Shown piece by piece: positions 26,814 to 64,000 of a stretch of 64,000 nucleotides of DNA. The stretch is from contig JACQSK010000005.1 of NCBI GenBank assembly GCA_016205975.1, positions 13,362 through 77,361 on the forward strand, in the 5' to 3' direction. The stretch is from Candidatus Uhrbacteria bacterium (lineage in GTDB: Bacteria; Patescibacteriota; Patescibacteriia; UBA9934; GWF2-40-263). The stretch's first letter is position 1. Every line of letters starts with the position of its first letter. Below the pieces are notes generated by a model. The model was not told the origin of the DNA, did no database searches, and saw only the letters and a list, made by a program, of their open reading frames with translations. The position numbers and the translations under genes are program-made.

Positions 26814-26890
26814 TGGTGGGGGTGGATGGACTCGAACCATCGACCATCGAGGTATAAGCTCGACGCTCTGACCAACTGAGCTACACCCCC
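26814..26890 (-). tRNA. tRNA-Ile (anticodon UAU), CCA encoded
   Basis: Manual cloverleaf: 7-bp acceptor GGGGGTG/CACCCCC, D stem GCTC/GAGC, anticodon stem TCGAG/CTCGA with loop CTTATAC (U33, anticodon TAT, A37), T stem GATGG/CCATC, TTCGAGT loop, 77 nt. Confidence 0.8.
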
Positions 26891-32383: not shown

Positions 32384-35275
32384 CTACTTCAGAAGCGGCT
32401 TCAAATACTGCCCCGTGACGCTTCTCTTCACCTTCACGATGTCACGAGGCGTCCCAACGGCGACCACTTCCCCGCCCTTGATGCCGCCGTCAGGCCCCAT
32501 GTCGATCACCCAGTCCGCACCCTTCACGACGTCCAAGTTGTGTTCGATGATGACTACGGTGTTTCCCTTGTCGACGAGCTGGTGGAGCACGCCCAAGAGG
32601 CGCTTGATGTCTTCAAAGTGCAAACCTGTCGTCGGCTCATCTAAGATGTACAGCGTGCGGCCTGTGGCGCGGCGCGAGAGCTCGGTGGAAAGTTTCACGC
32701 GCTGCGCCTCGCCGCCTGAGAGCGTGGTCGCGCTCTGTCCCAAGCGGATGTAACCGAGCCCCACCTCGTGGAGCACGTTCAGCTTGTCGAAGATAGCGGT
32801 CTGGTCGGCGAAGAAACGGCGCGTTTCCTCGACCGTCATATTCAGAACATCCGAAATTGTTTTCTGCTTGTAATGAACCTCGAGCGCCTCATGGTTATAG
32901 CGCGTGCCGCGGCATTCGGTGCACTCGACGTACACATCAGGAAGAAACTGCATCTCGATACGGCGCACGCCGTCGCCTCCGCACGCCTCACAGCGTCCGC
33001 CGCCTTTCACGTTGAAAGAAAACTTGCCGGCATCGTACTTGCGCATCTTGGCCTCGGGCAAGTCAGCGAACAAGTCGCGGATCGCGGTGAACACTCCTGT
33101 GTAGGTCGCGGGGTTAGAGCGCGGAGTGCGGCCGATCGGCGACTGGTCCACGGCGACGACCTTGTCGATGTGCTCGGTGCCCTTGATGTCCTTGTGCTCA
33201 CCCGGGTAGAGCTTGGCGCGATAAAACTTCCGGCTGAGCGCCTTCCCCAGAATATCCAAAACGAGCGTTGACTTGCCTGATCCTGAAACGCCCGTGACGC
33301 ACACGAGACAGCCAAGCGGAATCTCCACGTCGACGTCTTTCAAGTTGAAGGCGCTCGCACCCAGCACGGTCAGTTTCTTGCCGCTTCCCTTGCGATATTT
33401 TTTGGGAAGCGGAATAGACTTCGCCCCGGAAAGATATTGGCCGGTGAGAGAGTCCTTGTCTTTTTGAATCTTCGCGGCCGTGCCTTCCGACACAATCTGT
33501 CCGCCGTACTCGCCGGCTCCCGGCCCCACGTCAAACACATAGTCCGCGGCGCGGATCATCGCCTCATCGTGCTCCACGACGATCACGGAGTTGCCAAACG
33601 CCTTAAGCTGGCGGATCGTTTCGATCAAACAGTCATTATCACGCGGATGCAGCCCGATGGAGGGTTCGTCTAAGATATAGATGACGCCCGAGAGCTGACT
33701 GCCAAGCTGCGTGGCCAGGCGCACGCGCTGAGACTCGCCCCCTGAGAGCGTCATAGCACTGCGATCCAGCGTGAGGTATCCCAAACCTACCTGAGTGAGC
33801 TGATCCAACCGCACGCGTACTTCCTTTGCCACGCGCTCGGTGACCAAACGTTCATCCCCCGTCAGCTTCCCCAGCGTCTCCCCTTGTCCCCCTTTGCGCC
33901 CTTTGTCCCCCTTTGCGCCCTTTGTCCCCCTTTGTCCCCCTCCTCCCACCAGCCCATCAAAAAACGCTTTCACGTCCTCCACCGGCAAATTCACAACGTC
34001 GGCAATCGACTTCCCGTCTATGGTAATCGCGAGCACGGCTTTGTTGAGACGGCGCCCTTCACAGGAAGGACAGATCGTTCGGCGCATATAGCCCTCGAGC
34101 TCTGAACGCACATACTCGGAATCGGTCTCGCGGTATTTTTGTTCAAGCTGCGCCAAGACGCCTGGAAACGTGACGGTCTCGCCTTTGAAGGCATAGGTTT
34201 CCTCCCCGGTCCCGTTCAACACCAGTTCCATTTTTGCCTTGGGAATCTTTTGCACGGGCACGTCCATGGGAATGCGGTGCACTCTCCCAACGACCTGGAG
34301 CAGGTCCAGGTAGCTTGTCTGGTTGCCGGCAATCTTCGTCCAGGGTCTCACTGCTCCCTCTTCAAATGTCAGCCGGCGGTTGGGAACCACGAGCTCTGCT
34401 TCAAGCACCAGCTTCTCGCCGAGCCCCGTGCACTCCTCACACGCCCCATGGGGAGAGTTGAACGAGAACAATCGCGGCTCAGGCTCAGGGAGGTTGATGC
34501 CGCAGGAGGGACACATGTAGCTCTTAGAGAGCGACAGCTCGTCGCCAGAGTCGTCATTTACCAGCGTGATGAAACCGTTGCCGTAATCGAGCGCTTTGTT
34601 CACGAACTGCGTGATGTGCTCGGGAGAGTAGGCTGTGCCAGGCTCGAAAGCAAAGATGAGCACGTCGATGTCGTGATCTTTCTTTTTGTCTTTGCGCATG
34701 GAGAGCGCCTCGCTCGCGTCGATGAGCAGTCCATCAAAGCGCACTTGACTAAATCCCGCGTTCAGGGCGCCTTGCAGCACGTGCTTGTGTTCGCCTTTCA
34801 GGCGGCGGACGACGGGCGCAAACAGGAGCACGCGGTTCTTTCCGATGAGGGAGGACACGCGCGCCACAATCTCGGTGAGCGTCTGCTCGCCGACGTTTTG
34901 CCCGCACGCGGGACAATGCGGCCGACCGGCCCGCGCAAACAAGACGCGCAGAAAATCATAAATCTCCGTGACGGTCCCCACGGTCGAGCGAGGATTGTGC
35001 GATGAGGATTTTTGGTCAATGGCGATGGTGGGAGAGAGTCCCGTGATCTCATCAACGTCTGGCTTGTCTTGAAGCTCCAAAAATTGGCGGGCGTAGCTCG
35101 AGAGCGACTCCATGTACCTGCGCTGCCCTTCCGCGTAAATGGTATCAAACGCGAGCGAGGATTTTCCCGAACCCGAGAGGCCGGTCACGACCACGAGTTT
35201 GTTCTTGGGAATATCCACGTTCACATTTTTGAGATTGTGAACGCGCGCCCCACGGATGGAAATGAAGTCGGACAT
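32384..35275 (-). CDS. uvrA: excinuclease ABC subunit A
   Basis: [54 protein letters not shown]...; two ABC modules and zinc-finger Cys clusters. Contains an unusual Gly/Lys-rich insertion ([22 protein letters not shown]) encoded by a tandem decamer repeat. Track start 35287; ATG 35275 preferred. Confidence 0.9.
33882..33944 (-). repeat. tandem ~10-nt repeat (GGGGACAAAG / GGCGCAAAG units, ~6 copies) inside uvrA
   Basis: Plus strand reads CTTGTCCCC CTTTGCGCC CTTTGTCCCC CTTTGCGCC CTTTGTCCCC CTTTGTCCCC; same unit family recurs at 37688-37731 and 50498-50530. Confidence 0.85.
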
Positions 35276-43213: not shown

Positions 43214-43741
43214 TCCGAGGATCTGTCTGTAAGCCGAATTTTGTCTGCCCTGATTTCTCAGAGGAGATGGCAATCTATCTAGGCCGTCCATTGCTGGAGG
43301 GCTCAAGCGAGCTACCAAATTTGCTCTTTCACCGGACGAGGGTTTACCACACTCCATGTCACCATGGAGCGAAAGATGTAGCCGATTACTCGACATCACC
43401 TCACTTTTCACGTTTCGTTCTGCACAGCAGAACGACCCTGAGCCTGTCGAAGGGTGCACCCCTCGACGTTGCTCAAGATAGTTTTGCTGCGCAAAACTAG
43501 TATTGTCTCTGTGGCACTTTCCCTAGGCTTTGAGTCAGGAGTCATGGAACAGATTTCTCCAATTCCGCGAGTCCCAATCCTTATACCTGGTCGCCGTTAG
43601 CGACTCTCTTTGGTGTTGTGTCTTGCGACCCAACAGGTGTTCGGACTTTCCTCAATGAATGGAAGTTGGAGACCGACGTCCAATTCCCAACGTCTAACAT
43701 CCAACTTCCATTCATCGTAGCCATCCGACAGTCCTCAGACC
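43214..43741 (-). ncRNA. rnpB: RNase P RNA, bacterial type A, with expanded P3
   Basis: On the minus strand: GAGGAAAGTCCGAACACC (P4 5' strand), GGTAAACCC...GGTGAAAGAGCAAA, GCTTGAGCC...AGCAATGGACGGCCTAGATAGATTGCC and ACAAAATTCGGCTTACAGACAG (P4 3' strand) align motif-for-motif with E. coli M1 RNA, with GUCCGGG/CCCGGC to GUCCGAA/UUCGGC covariation. P1 5' GGTCTGAGGACTGTC pairs with the 3' end. A 63-nt P3 hairpin is present. Ends are approximate (±5 nt). Confidence 0.85.
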
Positions 43742-60314: not shown

Positions 60315-60852
60315 CGGTCTTCACGCCCTGCGAGCCATCGATGATGCCGTGGGCATGCGCGCGCAGAGGCATCACGGTCGCCCGAGCCGCTGGGAGCGCC
60401 ACGGCGTGGTGATACTGGACGTCATAATCCGGCTGTCTCTGGAGGCGTCGCTCAAGAGCCGTCTCTTCGTCGATCTCCAGCCAGAGCCTCAAGTCAAACA
60501 GCTCGCGGATGCGCGGGTCGGAAAACAACTGAAGGCCTTCGGCAAAAATAACCGGCGCGGGTTTGTAGAGCATGTGCCCTGTGCGCTCGCACAGGCGTCG
60601 GTTGTAGATCGGGAGAAAGACCTCATGCCCTTGCCGCAGCTCGCACAAGGCTTCATACACCTCGTCCAGATAGAGGCTCTCCGGCAGGTCCCAGTGCAAA
60701 CGGCCATCGGCAAGCTTGGGACAGTCGGCTTTAGACTTATAGTAGGCGTCGAAACGGAACCGCTTCACACCGCCCTGCGCCTCCAAGTGTTCTGCCAAAG
60801 TCGACTTGCCCGCGCCCGAGAGGCCGGCGAGTCCGATCAAAAAAGATTTCAT
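60268..60852 (-). CDS. udk: uridine kinase / PRK-family P-loop kinase
   Basis: LIGLAGLSGAGKSTLAEHL Walker A; 194 aa. Confidence 0.7.
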   Translation of the reverse strand: MKSFLIGLAGLSGAGKSTLAEHLEAQGGVKRFRFDAYYKSKADCPKLADGRLHWDLPESLYLDEVYEALCELRQGHEVFLPIYNRRLCERTGHMLYKPAPVIFAEGLQLFSDPRIRELFDLRLWLEIDEETALERRLQRQPDYDVQYHHAVALPAARATVMPLRAHAHGIIDGSQGVKTVAETADEIIRRFLGV

Positions 60853-61856
60853 ACTCTGCCTCTGCGCTTATAGCGCGTCTCCTCAATCGCCTGCTGTACC
60901 TGCATGAGCGTCACTTTCTGCTTCCCTTCGTTGCGATAGCCCCAGTTGCGGTCGAGCCCGAAGGTAAACCCGCCGAAACGCTCGAACAGATGTAGCGCGT
61001 AGGGAGACTCCTGAACGTAAATGAGGCCGCGGCCGTACTCCACCACGATGAGCGGCGTCGGCCGTCCGATCTCCTCCACCACCAGACGCGAAAGTCTGGG
61101 ACGCAGCTGCAGATCGGCGCGGGTGGTGATCACCAAAAACTCGTGCCAGGTCTTTTTGCGCTGCCAGGCTGCGCGGGCCAGACGATCTTTCTTTGCGTCG
61201 GTCCTTGGATTGCGCAAGTGGACGATCAGCTCATCATGAAAGGCCATGACCGCTTTAATCTCGACTCTTGAGTATCCCTCCTCCTGCAAGGCCCACACGT
61301 ACCCGCGATCCTGAATCCCGATCCCGCGCACGAGCCTTGGAACGAATCCCCACCGCGTCAGCTGCGCGTCCGTCACCTGGAACATCTCCAAAAATTGTTC
61401 TAGAGAAGACGGGAGGAGGCGCCCTTTTTTGTCATGCGCGCGGCTGAGTCCTGTATAGTGATGGTGGTCGATTACGATCAGCTTCACTCCAAGCTTGCGA
61501 ATCCGCGCCTCGGCCTTGACCCCTGGCATCTCCACGACGATCACGCGAGAATAGCCGCCCGCCTTCACATCGCGGACATAGTCACGACCCCGGTCGAGCG
61601 AGGCGCCGTGCCTCTGTCGAGAGAGGGCCGTGGGCAGCTCGAGTTTCTGCGCCAGTCGTTGGATCATCACCGCCTCTGCGTCATTGGGCGGGATGATGAG
61701 AAGCGTCTTTGGGTGGGGAGACCTTTGCAAAACTCGATGAGATTGCCTTGAACGGGCTGTCGAGCCACACGAGACGTAGTGAAAACTACGTTGAGTTGGG
61801 TCGACGGGCGCCCGTGAAAGGCAAGATCGCGAGTTTTGCAGAGGTCTCTGGGGCAT
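60849..61856 (-). CDS. hypothetical protein with DHH-like motif (VIDHHHYTG)
   Basis: The N-terminal ~60 aa of the track ORF are R/S-rich and probably non-coding; a start near ATG 61667 (MIQRLAQKL) is plausible. Confidence 0.4.
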   Translation of the reverse strand: MPQRPLQNSRSCLSRAPVDPTQRSFHYVSCGSTARSRQSHRVLQRSPHPKTLLIIPPNDAEAVMIQRLAQKLELPTALSRQRHGASLDRGRDYVRDVKAGGYSRVIVVEMPGVKAEARIRKLGVKLIVIDHHHYTGLSRAHDKKGRLLPSSLEQFLEMFQVTDAQLTRWGFVPRLVRGIGIQDRGYVWALQEEGYSRVEIKAVMAFHDELIVHLRNPRTDAKKDRLARAAWQRKKTWHEFLVITTRADLQLRPRLSRLVVEEIGRPTPLIVVEYGRGLIYVQESPYALHLFERFGGFTFGLDRNWGYRNEGKQKVTLMQVQQAIEETRYKRRGRV

Positions 61857-61884
61857 ACAGGGGCATTGTACTTTAGACGCCTCG

Positions 61885-61914
61885 TTGAGGAAACAGTAGC
61901 CGCTGCGCTATACT
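61885..61914 (+). promoter_or_regulatory. candidate sigma-70-type promoter TTGAGG-N18-TATACT
   Basis: Direct read; no ORF downstream; an intrinsic terminator lies 310 nt downstream. Confidence 0.4.
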
Positions 61915-61920
61915 GGATCC

Positions 61921-62231
61921 TGGAGTGCGTGGTCATGAATGGATAACGGCCATAGTCTATGAAGGGCAATTGGGAAAGAGTGCGCGCGCAAGATAGGCTT
62001 GCGTCGTGCACGAGGCTTCAAGCCTTGCGAACTCCGATGCACTCCGCTTCGGAGGTTTAGACACACAGAGTACCCCTCTGGTCAACACCCGGATTCGTCC
62101 GGGTCATGTGCCCCTTGCGGCGCTGGAGTGATCACGTTCGTACGCCCCGCAAGGGAGCGGACGCGATCCAGTGAGTCATGCCCGGCTGTGGCTGGGCTCA
62201 CACGAGGCCGGTCTTCATGACCGGCTTTTTT
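61921..62231 (+). ncRNA. candidate novel sRNA (~310 nt), highly structured, unidentified family
   Basis: Bounded by promoter 61885-61914 and terminator 62206-62231. Contains a C(UUCG)G tetraloop hairpin CTCCG-CTT-CGGAG, ACCCGG-attcgt-CCGGGT, and a 9-bp CCCTTGCGG...CCGCAAGGG helix. No tmRNA, SRP, 6S or RNase P signature found. Confidence 0.35.
62206..62231 (+). terminator. intrinsic terminator GGCCGGTC-ttcat-GACCGGC + TTTTTT
   Basis: Direct read. Confidence 0.6.
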
Positions 62232-62246
62232 AATTTGGCGCGGGCC

Positions 62247-62275
62247 TTGACGGATCCGACTTTTTCTGATAGATT
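62247..62275 (+). promoter_or_regulatory. candidate promoter TTGACG-N17-TAGATT with TG extension
   Basis: Matches the recurrent motif seen upstream of secG, ORF 56254 and the 43792 gene. Confidence 0.4.
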
Positions 62276-62281
62276 GTCCGG

Positions 62282-62645
62282 TCTGACGATTCCCGCGGAC
62301 AGCTACACCCGTAGCGGTCCGCCTTCACAGGAGCGGACCAAGATGAATGGCTAATCGCCACAGACAGCTCTCGCTGGACAGGAAAAGGACATCCGATCAC
62401 ATCGCCTCGCCGATGCACTCCGACGACGATCTTTTCCCGCGCGGAAAAAAGTCGTCTCGAACCGTCTTCCCAGAGGTGCCTATGGGCGGATAATGGCCAG
62501 CGCAACCCCGCTGTCGTGAAGCCCTACGCAGGCTGCACGACAGCGGGAGAGCGCCGCACATCCCCTCGCGCCTCACGACCACGAAACGAAACCGACCTCC
62601 CTGAGAGGCCTCCCACTTGGGAAGCCGACTCTTGGAAGGTCGGTT
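62282..62645 (+). ncRNA. second candidate sRNA (~360 nt), unidentified
   Basis: Ends in AAACCGACCTCC...GGAAGGTCGGTTTTCTCTTTTATTT (terminator-like, also serving the convergent TrmB gene). Contains a perfect 12-bp hairpin CCCGCTGTCGTG-17nt-CACGACAGCGGG (62503-62545) and GGTCCGC-ttcacagga-GCGGACC. Confidence 0.3.
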
Positions 62646-62652
62646 TTCTCTT

Positions 62653-63414
62653 TTATTTCCTGAATGACTGCGCGGAACAAACAGACCACGCCGCACGGAA
62701 CAAGACTCTCGCCATATCCGCGAACCCTTTGCTGTGAACGATCACGGTCATCATCTTCCCTACGAACTGGACGAACGCCACGCGGTCCTCGTACACCCAG
62801 ATCTCTCCCGTGAACTCCCCGAACTCGGAAAGCAGACGGCAGTACTCGGCGCCCGGGCGCGGGTTGCGCAGCTCGCCCCTGTGCAGCATTTTGATTTTGA
62901 CCTTCGTATCGTCCAGCGCTTTGCGCGCCTCCAGCAAGACGTTGGGATCGATCTCTCCATAGGCGGCATCAATGTTGGAGAGCTCGAGCAGCTCCTTGGG
63001 GTGAACCGAGACCAAATCGGCAAACAACGCATGGAGGGCTTCCCTCCCTTCGAAAAACCGCACGGTCGGCCTCTCGCCGCCGGCGAGCATTTTCATTTCC
63101 GTCAGGGAGCGCGTGAACGTCTCGATTTTCTCCACGAGCTCCTGCGACCGGTTCTTGAAGTAGGCGACGGCACGTTCCGGCTCTTCGGCGGAAAAATACT
63201 TTTTCTTTCCACGCTCAAAGGTGGACATGAGTCCGCGCTCTTGCAAGACGGCGATCACGTCATAGCTTGCCGTGCGCGAAAGCTTGGCGACCTTGGCGAT
63301 CTCTTGAACGGACGTGGGACCCAGTTTCAATGAAGCCAAATACACGCGCGCCTCCGTGGGCGTGAAACCCAGGTCGGTCAGGAGCTTGGAGAAATCCACA
63401 GGCATATTCTCCAT
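62653..63414 (-). CDS. TrmB-family transcriptional regulator
   Basis: N-terminal wHTH LGFTPTEARVYLASLKLGPTSVQEIAKVAKLSRTASYDVIAVLQERGL. Track start 63462; ATG 63414 (MENMPVDF) preferred. Confidence 0.75.
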   Translation of the reverse strand: MENMPVDFSKLLTDLGFTPTEARVYLASLKLGPTSVQEIAKVAKLSRTASYDVIAVLQERGLMSTFERGKKKYFSAEEPERAVAYFKNRSQELVEKIETFTRSLTEMKMLAGGERPTVRFFEGREALHALFADLVSVHPKELLELSNIDAAYGEIDPNVLLEARKALDDTKVKIKMLHRGELRNPRPGAEYCRLLSEFGEFTGEIWVYEDRVAFVQFVGKMMTVIVHSKGFADMARVLFRAAWSVCSAQSFRK

Positions 63415-63476
63415 GGAATCAGGACAAAAAATAAGGCTCTGCTTAGCCAAGGCTAAACGCATTGTCCACGGAATGC

Positions 63477-64000
63477 CTACATGATAGCAAATCCAATCGT
63501 GATGTCGAACTCGTTTGCGCGGAAGGTGCTGTTGATTTCTGGAACTTCGCCGTCCGTGCGGACAGAACTCGAGAGCGTCCCGCGCAGCAATAGCTCTGTC
63601 TGTTCCTGAACCGCTTTCAGAATCTCTGGACCGCCCGAGACGTACAGCGCAATCCGGTCTTCCAGAGTCAGGCCGGACGTTTTTCGCAAATCATTCACAC
63701 GACGGATGATCTCCCGCATGGTTCCCTCGCGCACCAGAGCCGGCGTGAGTGCGAGATCCAGCTCGACCGCGTACTCCCCTTTTCGGACGTCGATCGTCTT
63801 CACGTTCACCTCGTCTTTCACGAGCTCTTGATACTCGGGGGCAAACACTCCGCCTGGGACCGTCACGGTCATGCCAGCCAACACCTGCCGGACGTTGATT
63901 CCCGCATCGGATCGGCGCTCAAGCGCCTTAGAAACAATCGAACGTGTACGACCCATCTCCTCCAGAACCTGTTCGTCGATGTCAGACGCGTCTGCCACGG
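63477..64000 (-). CDS. ileS: isoleucyl-tRNA ligase, C-terminal ~174 aa (gene continues beyond window end)
   Basis: ...VNVKTIDVRKGEYAVELDLALTPALVREGTMREIIRRVNDLRKTSGL... is the conserved IleS C-terminal region. The upstream part lies outside the window, so the M at 63998 is not the real start. Confidence 0.65.
   Translation of the reverse strand, partial: VADASDIDEQVLEEMGRTRSIVSKALERRSDAGINVRQVLAGMTVTVPGGVFAPEYQELVKDEVNVKTIDVRKGEYAVELDLALTPALVREGTMREIIRRVNDLRKTSGLTLEDRIALYVSGGPEILKAVQEQTELLLRGTLSSSVRTDGEVPEINSTFRANEFDITIGFAIM

Follow-up and report, generated by a model that had tools for sequence, protein, structure and literature searches.

Unit 1, the segment at positions 61885-62231 on the plus strand of a 64-kb DNA stretch from a Candidatus Uhrbacteria genome (candidate phyla radiation, CPR), is probably a small RNA gene. 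Its sequence and genomic setting suggest that it represents the A copy of a tandem A/B pair within an mRNA-like Uhrbacteria RNA family, the members of which would act through ribosome engagement on mini-cistrons. Throughout, "the window" refers to the whole stretch that was analysed (64,000 nucleotides, nt). The predicted transcript would extend on the plus strand from ~61921, its inferred start, to 62231. The initial annotation had described the region as an orphan interval, free of open reading frames (ORFs), encoding a candidate structured small RNA (sRNA). While a promoter-to-terminator unit that is absent from Rfam and conserved in position was indeed found, its best-conserved parts are translation signals. 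Because a Shine-Dalgarno (SD) sequence, AUG, two codons and a stop are most conserved, and not a large tertiary fold, the label "structured noncoding sRNA" is incomplete; "mRNA-like small RNA with mini-cistrons and local hairpins" fits better.

Unit 1 is a homologue of syntenic predicted RNA units in other Uhrbacteria

The window contains a non-coding gap of ~985 nt between a DHH-type gene (60849-61667) and a TrmB-family gene (62653-63462). Both genes lie on the minus strand and flank unit 1 on either side, consistent with the initial placement of the unit on the strand opposite to its neighbours. Unit 1 is not an orphan, since a second promoter-to-terminator unit (unit 2, 62247-62658, plus strand) follows directly within the same gap, and orthologues are present in other genomes. 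Comparisons were made across 73 loci around homologues of the DHH-type gene, which encodes a protein of 272 amino acids (aa), taken from species representatives of the Genome Taxonomy Database (GTDB), plus metagenome loci (individual loci carry L numbers).

A clear pattern was observed: in related Uhrbacteria, too, the space between the DHH-type and TrmB-type genes holds one or two such units, on the strand opposite to both genes. Sixteen of the 19 loci that keep the TrmB-gap-DHH synteny contain a TTGACA-N17-TGnTAnnnT promoter on the opposite strand, 400-550 nt from the TrmB stop. Nearly all of these loci hold a B-unit RNA, with an SD and ATG AAY GGN stop, later a strong SD (often GGAGGTG) and ATG GGN GGN stop, and then hairpins and a terminator after the second mini-ORF; unit 2 of the window is a B unit. 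A units adjoin the DHH gene and diverge from it (L007, L008, L010-L015, L070, L092/L099/L101 and L105), and are limited to the subclade in which the DHH protein is at least 70% identical to that of the window. Unit 1 sits where A units are found, on the strand opposite to the DHH-type gene, upstream of that gene and diverging from it.

A single-sequence search with unit 1 against the 73 syntenic loci gave no match, even at E values up to 50 with filters off, and its homology was seen only after the mini-ORF motif had led to the orthologous units and a profile. The nhmmer profile was built from eight A units of other genomes, with the window excluded, and was searched against both strands of the 64 kb. 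Matches were found solely at 61933-62104 (E 1.2e-5, the best) and at 62342-62652 within unit 2 (E 1.3e-3). This match establishes homology between unit 1 and the A units. Unit 1 also aligns with L015 at its -10 box and 5′ end (GCTATACTAGATCCTGAGGA vs GCTATACTGGATCCTGGAGT; GCTATACTAGATCCTGAGGAACGGAGCCATGAACGGATAAC vs GCTATACTGGATCCTGGAGTGCGTGGTCATGAATGGATAAC), and counterparts of the -10 box, the 5′ end, several hairpins and the terminator are present in 11 other Uhrbacteria units, with the sequence between these elements evolving fast and carrying insertions and deletions. The homology and synteny of the family are direct observations. A metagenome scan for the two-mini-ORF pattern, covering one spacing range, returned true matches solely at Uhrbacteria loci with the same synteny; the remainder was microsatellite noise, mostly of the GGAT type because TRR allows TGG.

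The initial by-eye conclusion that unit 1 matches no known RNA family was borne out by a covariance search against all 4227 models of Rfam 15, which include transfer-messenger RNA (tmRNA), signal recognition particle (SRP) RNA, 6S, RNase P, riboswitches and twoAYGGAY. No family reached its gathering score near the interval or in 18 orthologous loci. At E values up to 10 only chance-level matches were returned, the best within the interval being SorX on the terminator hairpin (19.1 bits vs a gathering score of 46.6). Accordingly SRP, 6S, RNase P, riboswitches and twoAYGGAY were rejected as identities of unit 1 by their covariance models (an RNase P RNA lies elsewhere in the window, at 43214-43688), and tmRNA was rejected also by ARAGORN, which found none. 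A description of the Uhrbacteria mini-ORF RNA family was not found in the literature. While minigene-type RNAs are already known as a kind, the Uhrbacteria family is undescribed in Rfam and in the literature searched.

The mini-ORFs vary as codons do

A repeat search inside the window showed two sequences that are common to units 1 and 2 and identically ordered in both, ATGAATGG[A/C]TAA and the exactly repeated 13-mer CCGATGCACTCCG. Unit 2 also contains a third, related copy, ATGGGCGGATAA, and an SD-like GGAG or GAGG precedes each copy. Read as reading frames, the copies correspond to Met-Asn-Gly-stop (MNG-stop) and Met-Gly-Gly-stop (MGG-stop). Among all SD-preceded short ORFs of the whole window, these two classes occur exactly three times, each time at the RNA locus.

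The same motifs are enriched across the family. Within 513 kb of Uhrbacteria loci (both strands), ATGAAYGGN-stop occurred 19 times vs ~1.5 expected and ATGGGNGGN-stop 17 times vs ~3 expected; seven control patterns (non-stop endings, swapped codons and non-ATG starts) occurred 0-6 times. Nearly all occurrences of the mini-ORF patterns lie on the RNA strand of A or B units, behind an SD. When SD-preceded ORFs of 2-5 codons were counted in the loci, MNG-stop and MGG-stop each gave 30 pattern matches, with the next class at 7. Every unit has an SD and a first mini-ORF, which is MNG-stop in 18/27 units, and a second SD with MGG-stop is usual.

Variation among the mini-ORFs was tabulated for 53 of them, about one per position per unit. 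ATG is invariant and codon positions 1 and 2 are near-invariant, while wobble positions are free: the Gly wobble of mini-ORF 1 is A in 7, C in 7, G in 5 and T in 4, and its Asn codon is AAC in 16 and AAT in 7. All three stops are used (TAA 23, TGA 19, TAG 11), lengths are 9, 12 or 15 nt only, and 4-9 nt separate the SD from the AUG. In 51/53 mini-ORFs the peptide would end in Gly, Ser, Thr or Ala, residues whose codons are unrelated. Both the motif statistics and this codon-like variation are observed properties of the family. They form the pattern expected under reading-frame constraint, and suggest without proving that the mini-ORFs are read.

These results are consistent with a model in which a sigma-70-type promoter would drive an RNA of 210-560 nt that ends at an intrinsic terminator. 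The conserved core would be one or two mini-cistrons, each consisting of an SD at optimal spacing, AUG, two (rarely one or three) codons and a stop, with the first typically specifying Met-Asn-Gly and the second Met-Gly-Gly. The second SD, often a full GGAGGUG, would in A units be masked by a small local hairpin. Function would then lie in the act of initiating and terminating on the mini-cistrons and not in the RNA body, whether by engagement of a ribosome, tRNA or factor, or by a bound ribosome protecting the RNA. We infer transcription, translation and this mode of action from the conserved parts, which are RNA polymerase and ribosome signals within a fast-changing body.

Architecture of unit 1

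The following elements were identified in unit 1 (MFE, minimum free energy).

61885-61890 (+): -35-like hexamer TTGAGG, homologous to part of the conserved upstream motif TGTGGGAAAC of orthologous units.
61909-61914 (+): -10 box TATACT; a TAnnnT box lies at the same pre-SD distance in 11/11 orthologous A units.
61922-61925 (+): first SD (SD1), GGAG, at or beside the inferred transcript 5′ end (~61921).
61935-61946 (+): mini-ORF 1, ATG AAT GGA TAA (ATGAATGGATAA; Met-Asn-Gly-stop), 9 nt past GGAG.
61980-62011 (+): hairpin H1, GUGCGCGCGCAAG/CUUGCGUCGUGCAC, predicted in the MFE and centroid structures of unit 1.
62012-62026 (+): hairpin H3, GAGGCU-UCA-AGCCUU; its position is kept among A units, its stem sequences differ.
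62034-62046 (+): 13-mer CCGATGCACTCCG, exactly repeated in unit 2 at 62410-62422 (~0.002 chance matches expected).
62042-62055 (+): SD2 hairpin, CUCC(G)-loop-(C)GGAG plus G, masking the second SD (stem CTCCG-CTT-CGGAG at 62042-62054).
62056-62075 (+): site of the lost mini-ORF 2, elsewhere ATGGGNGGNstop; a gap in the profile alignment.
62088-62103 (+): hairpin CCCGG-AUUCGU-CCGGG, aligning with CCCCGG-UUAC-GCCGGG of L015 and L012.
62105-62200 (+): extra segment of ~95 nt with two hairpins (arms 62112-62123 / 62144-62155; 62180-62197), unique to this genome's unit 1.
62204-62231 (+): intrinsic terminator, a 10-pair stem (62204-62228) followed by a T run to 62231.

Scanning recovered both ends of the unit as originally proposed, the promoter TTGAGG-N18-TATACT at 61885-61914 (+), which matches 9/12 consensus positions, and the terminator that follows it. 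Across the region 61000-63500 there are 3 promoter-like sites vs 0.7 expected and 8 terminator-like sites vs 2.5 expected. The A-unit -10 box takes the forms TATACT, TACACT, TACAAT, TATAAT and TAGGAT, other A units likewise begin with (U)GAGGAG 7-8 nt past the -10 box, and A-unit terminator stems show compensatory changes. In L015 the counterpart of the -35-like hexamer, TGTGGGAAACAGG, lies 12 nt more distant from the -10 box. As read from this alignment, the -35 box of unit 1 is a conserved upstream motif moved to -35 distance by a 12-nt deletion.

This upstream motif, CTGGACA-N8-10-TGTGGGAAA, precedes the A-unit -10 box by ~30-60 nt and lies in the region of divergent promoters that A units share with the DHH gene (L015 3395-3425, L012, L013, L014, L010 and L070). 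In the window (61885-61896) its second half alone is kept (TTGAGGAAACAG), now serving as the -35 box. The motif may be a regulator binding site, for which TrmB has been queried as a candidate.

Regarding coding content, the absence of a long ORF was upheld, while the conserved three-codon ORF at 61935-61946 means that the interval is not ORF-free. The 73-aa ORF at 61999-62220, previously dismissed as junk, exists; it is Arg-rich and has no conserved counterpart in homologues. Similarly, the hairpin first read as a C(UUCG)G tetraloop is present at 62042-62055 and is better drawn as CUCC-GCUUC-GGAG or CUCCG-CUU-CGGAG, masking SD2. Beyond it, the 12 nt that hold ATGGGNGGN-stop in other units are replaced in unit 1 by sequence without a start codon. 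Because the second mini-ORF is not found after SD2, unit 1 is an atypical or partly degenerate family member. By its sequence, unit 1 is a modified member of the family that has kept the promoter, SD1, MNG, H3, the SD2 hairpin, the CCCGG hairpin and the terminator, while losing the second start and gaining ~95 nt. Derivation of this extra segment from the B type (CCCC-stem-GGG-AG(A)GCG domain) was a visual impression and found no confirmation from a covariance model. Across 61819-62652, four contigs of the same species from independent samples show no differences and are, for that reason, uninformative on selection. This population is present in sequencing runs SRR12113385-SRR12113433.

RNA folding and local hairpins

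The initial view of unit 1 as well folded was supported: against dinucleotide shuffles its plus strand gave z -4.2 when folded from 61915 and z -3.4 from the inferred start, with the reverse strand at z -2.9. All A units (11/11) fold better than shuffles, with z -1.3 to -4.3. A closing helix in the fold from 61915 (CTGGATC/GATCCAG) was set aside, as it includes bases upstream of the inferred start.

A hairpin masking SD2 was found in 9/12 A units, including unit 1, compared with 7/162 control SDs before long ORFs. It takes the forms CUCC/GGAG, CUCCC/GGGAG and UCCGC/GCGGA, and in the other 3/12 A units CCGC/GCGG or CCGG/CCGG covers the first two G of the SD. Counterparts of H3 are GCGAGC/GCUCGC (L015), GGGA/UCCC (L012), GAGGC/GCCUC (L011) and GAGGA/CCUC (L070), as an unscored by-eye reading of the alignment.

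With whole-unit MAFFT alignments, RNAalifold detected few structures apart from the terminators and the mini-ORF 2 hairpin. These alignments leave helices out of register, and the internal hairpins thus carry no formal covariation statistic. For the B-type 3′ hairpin domain (R1), a covariance model found all 8 of its seeds again, along with a single weak new match in L092 (16.4 bits, E 0.75), located where the B unit is expected. The R1 model proved too insensitive: unit 2 of the window, a known homologue, and a similar-looking hairpin of unit 1 were both unmatched.

Unit 2, the B copy

Unit 2 is better conserved than unit 1, with homologues in at least 16 Uhrbacteria loci and plain sequence homologues in the nearest genomes (L007, L008, L009 and L080). 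It consists of the following elements.

62247-62275 (+): promoter TTGACG-N17-TG-n-TAGATT with extended -10 (TTGACG-N17-TGATAGATT), near-invariant in L007, L008, L009 and L080.
62295-62322 (+): 5′ hairpin.
62343-62354 (+): mini-ORF 1, ATG AAT GGC TAA (MNG-stop), with SD AGGAG at 62329-62333.
62482-62493 (+): mini-ORF 2, ATG GGC GGA TAA (MGG-stop), with SD GAGGTG at 62473-62478.
62506-62547 (+): long hairpin after mini-ORF 2; stems wholly different among genomes, position and flanks kept.
62589-62658 (+): terminator (scan call around 62619-62649), abutting the stop codon of the convergent TrmB gene.

Its MFE corresponds to z -6.4. A 48-aa ORF at 62347-62493 was rejected as a gene, being unconserved in homologues. 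The unit 2 homologues L007-L009 lack a stretch corresponding to the 13-mer CCGATGCACTCCG, which suggests a recent sequence exchange between units 1 and 2 in this genome.

Weighing the proposal against alternatives

Several points weigh against action through ribosomes on mini-cistrons, and against an intact role for unit 1. No ATG, GTG or TTG follows SD2 of unit 1 (62056-62075), and having lost mini-ORF 2 the unit may be decaying. Its -35 box is weak (TTGAGG, spacer 18, no extended -10), unlike that of unit 2, and the A unit is absent or degenerate in L009 and L080. The argument from lengths in multiples of three is partly circular, because an in-frame stop partly defined the mini-ORF set, a circularity softened by the presence of a mini-ORF of this kind in nearly every syntenic unit. 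Mini-ORF 2 also pairs in part with a C-rich segment after it. Compensatory pairs (GGGUAGC/GCUACCC in L007, GGCGG/CCGCC in L008, GGUGG/CCACC in L013) indicate that RNA structure constrains its bases as well. A rare-tRNA trap is unlikely given the common codons of the mini-ORFs: in this genome GGC and GGA make up 45% and 23% of Gly codons, AAC and AAT 70% and 30% of Asn codons, and the rare codons (ACT, TTA, CTA, ATA and AGA) are absent from the mini-ORFs. Finally, we know of no function for tripeptides.

A first alternative is a non-translated, structured or scaffold RNA, which we regard as unlikely though still to be reckoned with. On this reading no peptide would be made, the SD- and AUG-like motifs would serve only to bind 30S subunits or a protein, and the function would lie in the RNA body, for example in target pairing. 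Such an RNA could be a ribosome-sponging RNA or, like STAB-SD or the ermC leader, a 5′ stabiliser that protects against a 5′ exonuclease by binding a ribosome. The local hairpins that keep their position despite different sequences, the consistently negative MFE z-scores and the covariation of mini-ORF 2 nucleotides with the downstream segment would all fit such an RNA. So would the SD at the inferred 5′ end of A units, which is where 5′ stabilisers act (PMC3997798). In the known cases (cryIIIA STAB-SD, ermC/ermA leader stall sites and a mini-ORF site in a type III secretion system mRNA) an SD near the 5′ end recruits a shielding ribosome (PMC3997798). However, these stabilisers precede a long payload mRNA, whereas only hairpins and a second mini-ORF follow in the Uhrbacteria A units. 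Moreover, a stabiliser needs neither an optimally spaced AUG nor an in-frame stop two codons on, and both have been kept ~50 times, with all stops represented and free wobble. Since the RNA body is unconserved beyond close relatives, no seed region is evident, which also argues against a scaffold. The units resemble dual-function sRNAs (SgrS/SgrT, RNAIII/hld, SR1/SR1P) in standing alone with their own promoter and terminator and in being potentially translated, but those RNAs encode peptides of 26-43 aa and have conserved pairing seeds, where the Uhrbacteria units have three-codon ORFs and no conserved seed.

Similarly doubtful is the proposal that unit 1 is an RNA pseudogene, a duplicate of the functional type seen in unit 2 that is now decaying and, though perhaps transcribed, has no role of its own. 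The lost second start codon, a promoter weaker than that of unit 2 and the genome-specific 95-nt addition point this way, as does the confinement of A units to a subclade with absent or degenerate copies within the family. Nevertheless, unit 1 has an intact -10 box, SD1, MNG mini-ORF, SD2 hairpin and CCCGG hairpin as well as a perfect terminator; its added segment is well folded, and its z of -3.4 is among the best in the family.

An improbable third alternative is a cis-acting leader-peptide attenuator, in which mini-ORF occupancy would set terminator formation and read-through from unit 1 into unit 2, or from unit 2 into the antisense of the TrmB and ileS genes. Mini-ORF, hairpins and terminator do follow the classical attenuator layout, alternative structures could form through the SD2 hairpin and through base-pairing between mini-ORF 2 and the sequence after it, and the Gly-rich codons recall amino-acid-sensing leaders. 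Known attenuators (trp, his, pheST; erm/cat) share with the units a short ORF, alternative hairpins and a terminator or masked second SD. Yet they have a same-strand gene downstream and leader ORFs of at least 8 codons with runs of sensed codons, and the Uhrbacteria units have neither. The attenuator is a weak candidate because no same-strand protein gene lies downstream in any locus, unit 2 always running into the 3′ end of the convergent TrmB gene. Gly wobble covers all four bases, so no single tRNA is sensed, and three codons leave little room for stalling-dependent switching.

We consider a growth-arresting RNA toxin to be very improbable, whether CreT-like (type VIII toxin-antitoxin) or akin to the lambda bar minigenes, acting by sequestering tRNA as peptidyl-tRNA. 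In the CreT system, the antitoxin creA is a degenerate CRISPR (clustered regularly interspaced short palindromic repeats) repeat-spacer, and creA and the cas genes together repress the toxin promoter. Minigene ORFs are known to promote peptidyl-tRNA drop-off and to sequester tRNA and ribosomes (see also PMC2490762). In the Haloarcula hispanica toxin CreT a strong SD and an efficient start are followed by two codons, a conserved stop and a downstream stem-loop, and it is translation that acts, not the peptide (PMC8501985). The Uhrbacteria mini-ORFs present the same list of parts, and CreT is the nearest architecture described. CreT, however, traps a rare tRNA with two identical rare codons, AGA AGA or AUA AUA, while the codons here are common, with free wobble, and the two of mini-ORF 1 are non-identical. 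CreT also lies beside cas genes with its creA antitoxin and is sporadic and mobile; in the 64-kb window no CRISPR-like array or creA-like repeat was seen, and the RNAs are inherited vertically at one chromosomal locus in a class-level clade, unlike mobile addiction modules. The near-consensus promoters come with no evident repressor RNA; each RNA usually has two mini-ORFs that differ, and the RNAs usually come as a tandem pair. Membership in the CreT group thus fails on common codons with unfixed wobble, the lack of CRISPR context and vertical inheritance. An SD and a two- or three-codon ORF are likewise present in lambda bar minigenes (AUG AUA stop) and in synthetic toxic minigenes. Bar sites, in contrast, are short elements in a phage transcript with effects in Pth-deficient hosts, whereas the Uhrbacteria units are dedicated chromosomal genes with conserved Asn and Gly codons.

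Chance promoter- and terminator-like sites in spacer DNA, giving no RNA product, would fit a promoter matching merely 9/12 positions and the general tendency of GC-rich DNA to fold well (the reverse strand also reaches z -2.9), but this explanation is scarcely credible given orthologous units with the same element order in 11 other genomes, a significant profile match and strong motif enrichment.

Neighbouring genes and other features

The DHH-type gene (60849-61667, minus strand) encodes 272 aa as called in public records and contains an IIDHHHY motif. Its product is 100% identical to a hypothetical protein in a Candidatus Uhrbacteria metagenome-assembled genome, and nearly all of its ~276 relatives are from Uhrbacteria or Patescibacteria. 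A Pfam search gave no match. The AlphaFold model is confident (predicted local distance difference test score, pLDDT, 90) and matches the structures of DHH/DHHA1 phosphoesterases, the best being NrN (a SAM-AMP/nanoRNA-type phosphodiesterase; template modelling score, TM, 0.64-0.69), followed by pAp phosphatase and pApA phosphodiesterase. The ileS gene adjoins the TrmB gene, and the RNA locus also has uridine kinase and ruvA genes as neighbours. Downstream of the DHH gene, the same organism has a FemAB-family gene (L001 3329-4222) at a distance of three genes from the RNA locus. FemAB enzymes use small-residue aminoacyl-tRNAs (Gly, Ala, Ser) as substrates for cell-wall cross-bridges; any connection with mini-ORFs ending in Gly, Ser, Thr or Ala would be pure speculation, and the proximity is best taken as coincidence.

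An imperfect palindrome of ~130 nt lies at 61712-61852 (arms 61718-61757 / 61810-61848). Positioned between the DHH start (61667) and the conserved DHH -10 box (TACAAT, minus strand, 61865-61870), it falls within the 5′ untranslated region of the DHH gene. Copies occur at varied sites and in both orientations in other Uhrbacteria (L009 2309-2477, L016 twice, L043, L069 and L020). The palindrome has no Rfam match and looks like a mobile element resembling miniature inverted-repeat transposable elements (MITE) or repetitive extragenic palindromes (REP). Same-species Logan contigs all break within it, with 61760-61818 missing.

Between the A and B positions, three loci carry a third small conserved unit that is not present in the window (L007 2936-3090, L009 2973-3125 and L080 3190-3340, minus strand of the loci). 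It comprises a promoter-like CTGACA-N17/18-TATCAT followed by GGGATGATTTTTCTGTCAAGAGTAT and an AT-rich stretch, without a mini-ORF. In addition, a stretch of 448 nt between the B and A units of L070 (2298-2745) and L011 (2214-2659) is 89% identical, compared with 78-82% in its surroundings. It contains only junk-like overlapping ORFs on both strands, has no Rfam match and is a candidate for a further conserved RNA. Beside it lies a gene for a small conserved protein (70-78 aa, motif GTLAQLIEWARKRKNG).

Elsewhere in the window, a bacterial class A RNase P RNA was found at 43214-43688 (minus strand; 108 bits vs a gathering score of 100). Its match spans 475 nt vs a model of 367 positions, and this span together with the near-threshold score indicates an expanded or divergent RNA with insertions. 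ARAGORN identified a tRNA-Ile with anticodon TAT (UAU) at 26814-26890 (minus strand); AUA is in bacteria more usually decoded by a lysidine-modified CAU tRNA (tilS). A short tandem repeat lies at 33876-33941, read either as (GTCCCCCTTT) x 6.8 or as a 19-nt unit x 2.9.

Implications for Uhrbacteria

CPR (Patescibacteria) have tiny genomes, and to our knowledge hardly any regulatory RNAs have been described in them. Against this background, a locus of ~1 kb has been kept without protein genes, holding one or two strongly promoted, predicted RNAs whose conserved elements, standard signals for translation, frame ORFs too short for a conventional peptide. Returning to the favoured model of ribosome engagement on mini-cistrons, we tentatively extend it to a housekeeping "minigene RNA", a possibility that we hold with some reserve. 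In such an RNA, encoded at a fixed locus behind a near-consensus promoter, the only conserved payload would be the three-codon fMet-Asn-Gly and fMet-Gly-Gly cistrons, preceded by optimal or maximal SD sites, and function would lie in the translation cycle and not in an addiction toxin. If so, these RNAs could serve in ribosome parking or titration, in sensing the capacity for initiation, termination or recycling, or in making peptidyl-tRNA or tripeptides that end in a small residue.

For sRNA screens, these results show that a "no ORF" call can overlook a defining three-codon ORF. Should the mini-ORFs prove untranslated, the units would still constitute a new RNA family absent from Rfam, with a clear signature useful for annotating Uhrbacteria genomes. 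If translation does occur, CreT and the bar minigenes would have in this family a natural counterpart that is inherited vertically, and the family would offer a testable handle on the ribosome cycle as a regulatory or storage device in bacteria with reduced genomes. Genuinely translated minigene RNAs would represent a new functional class of bacterial RNA.

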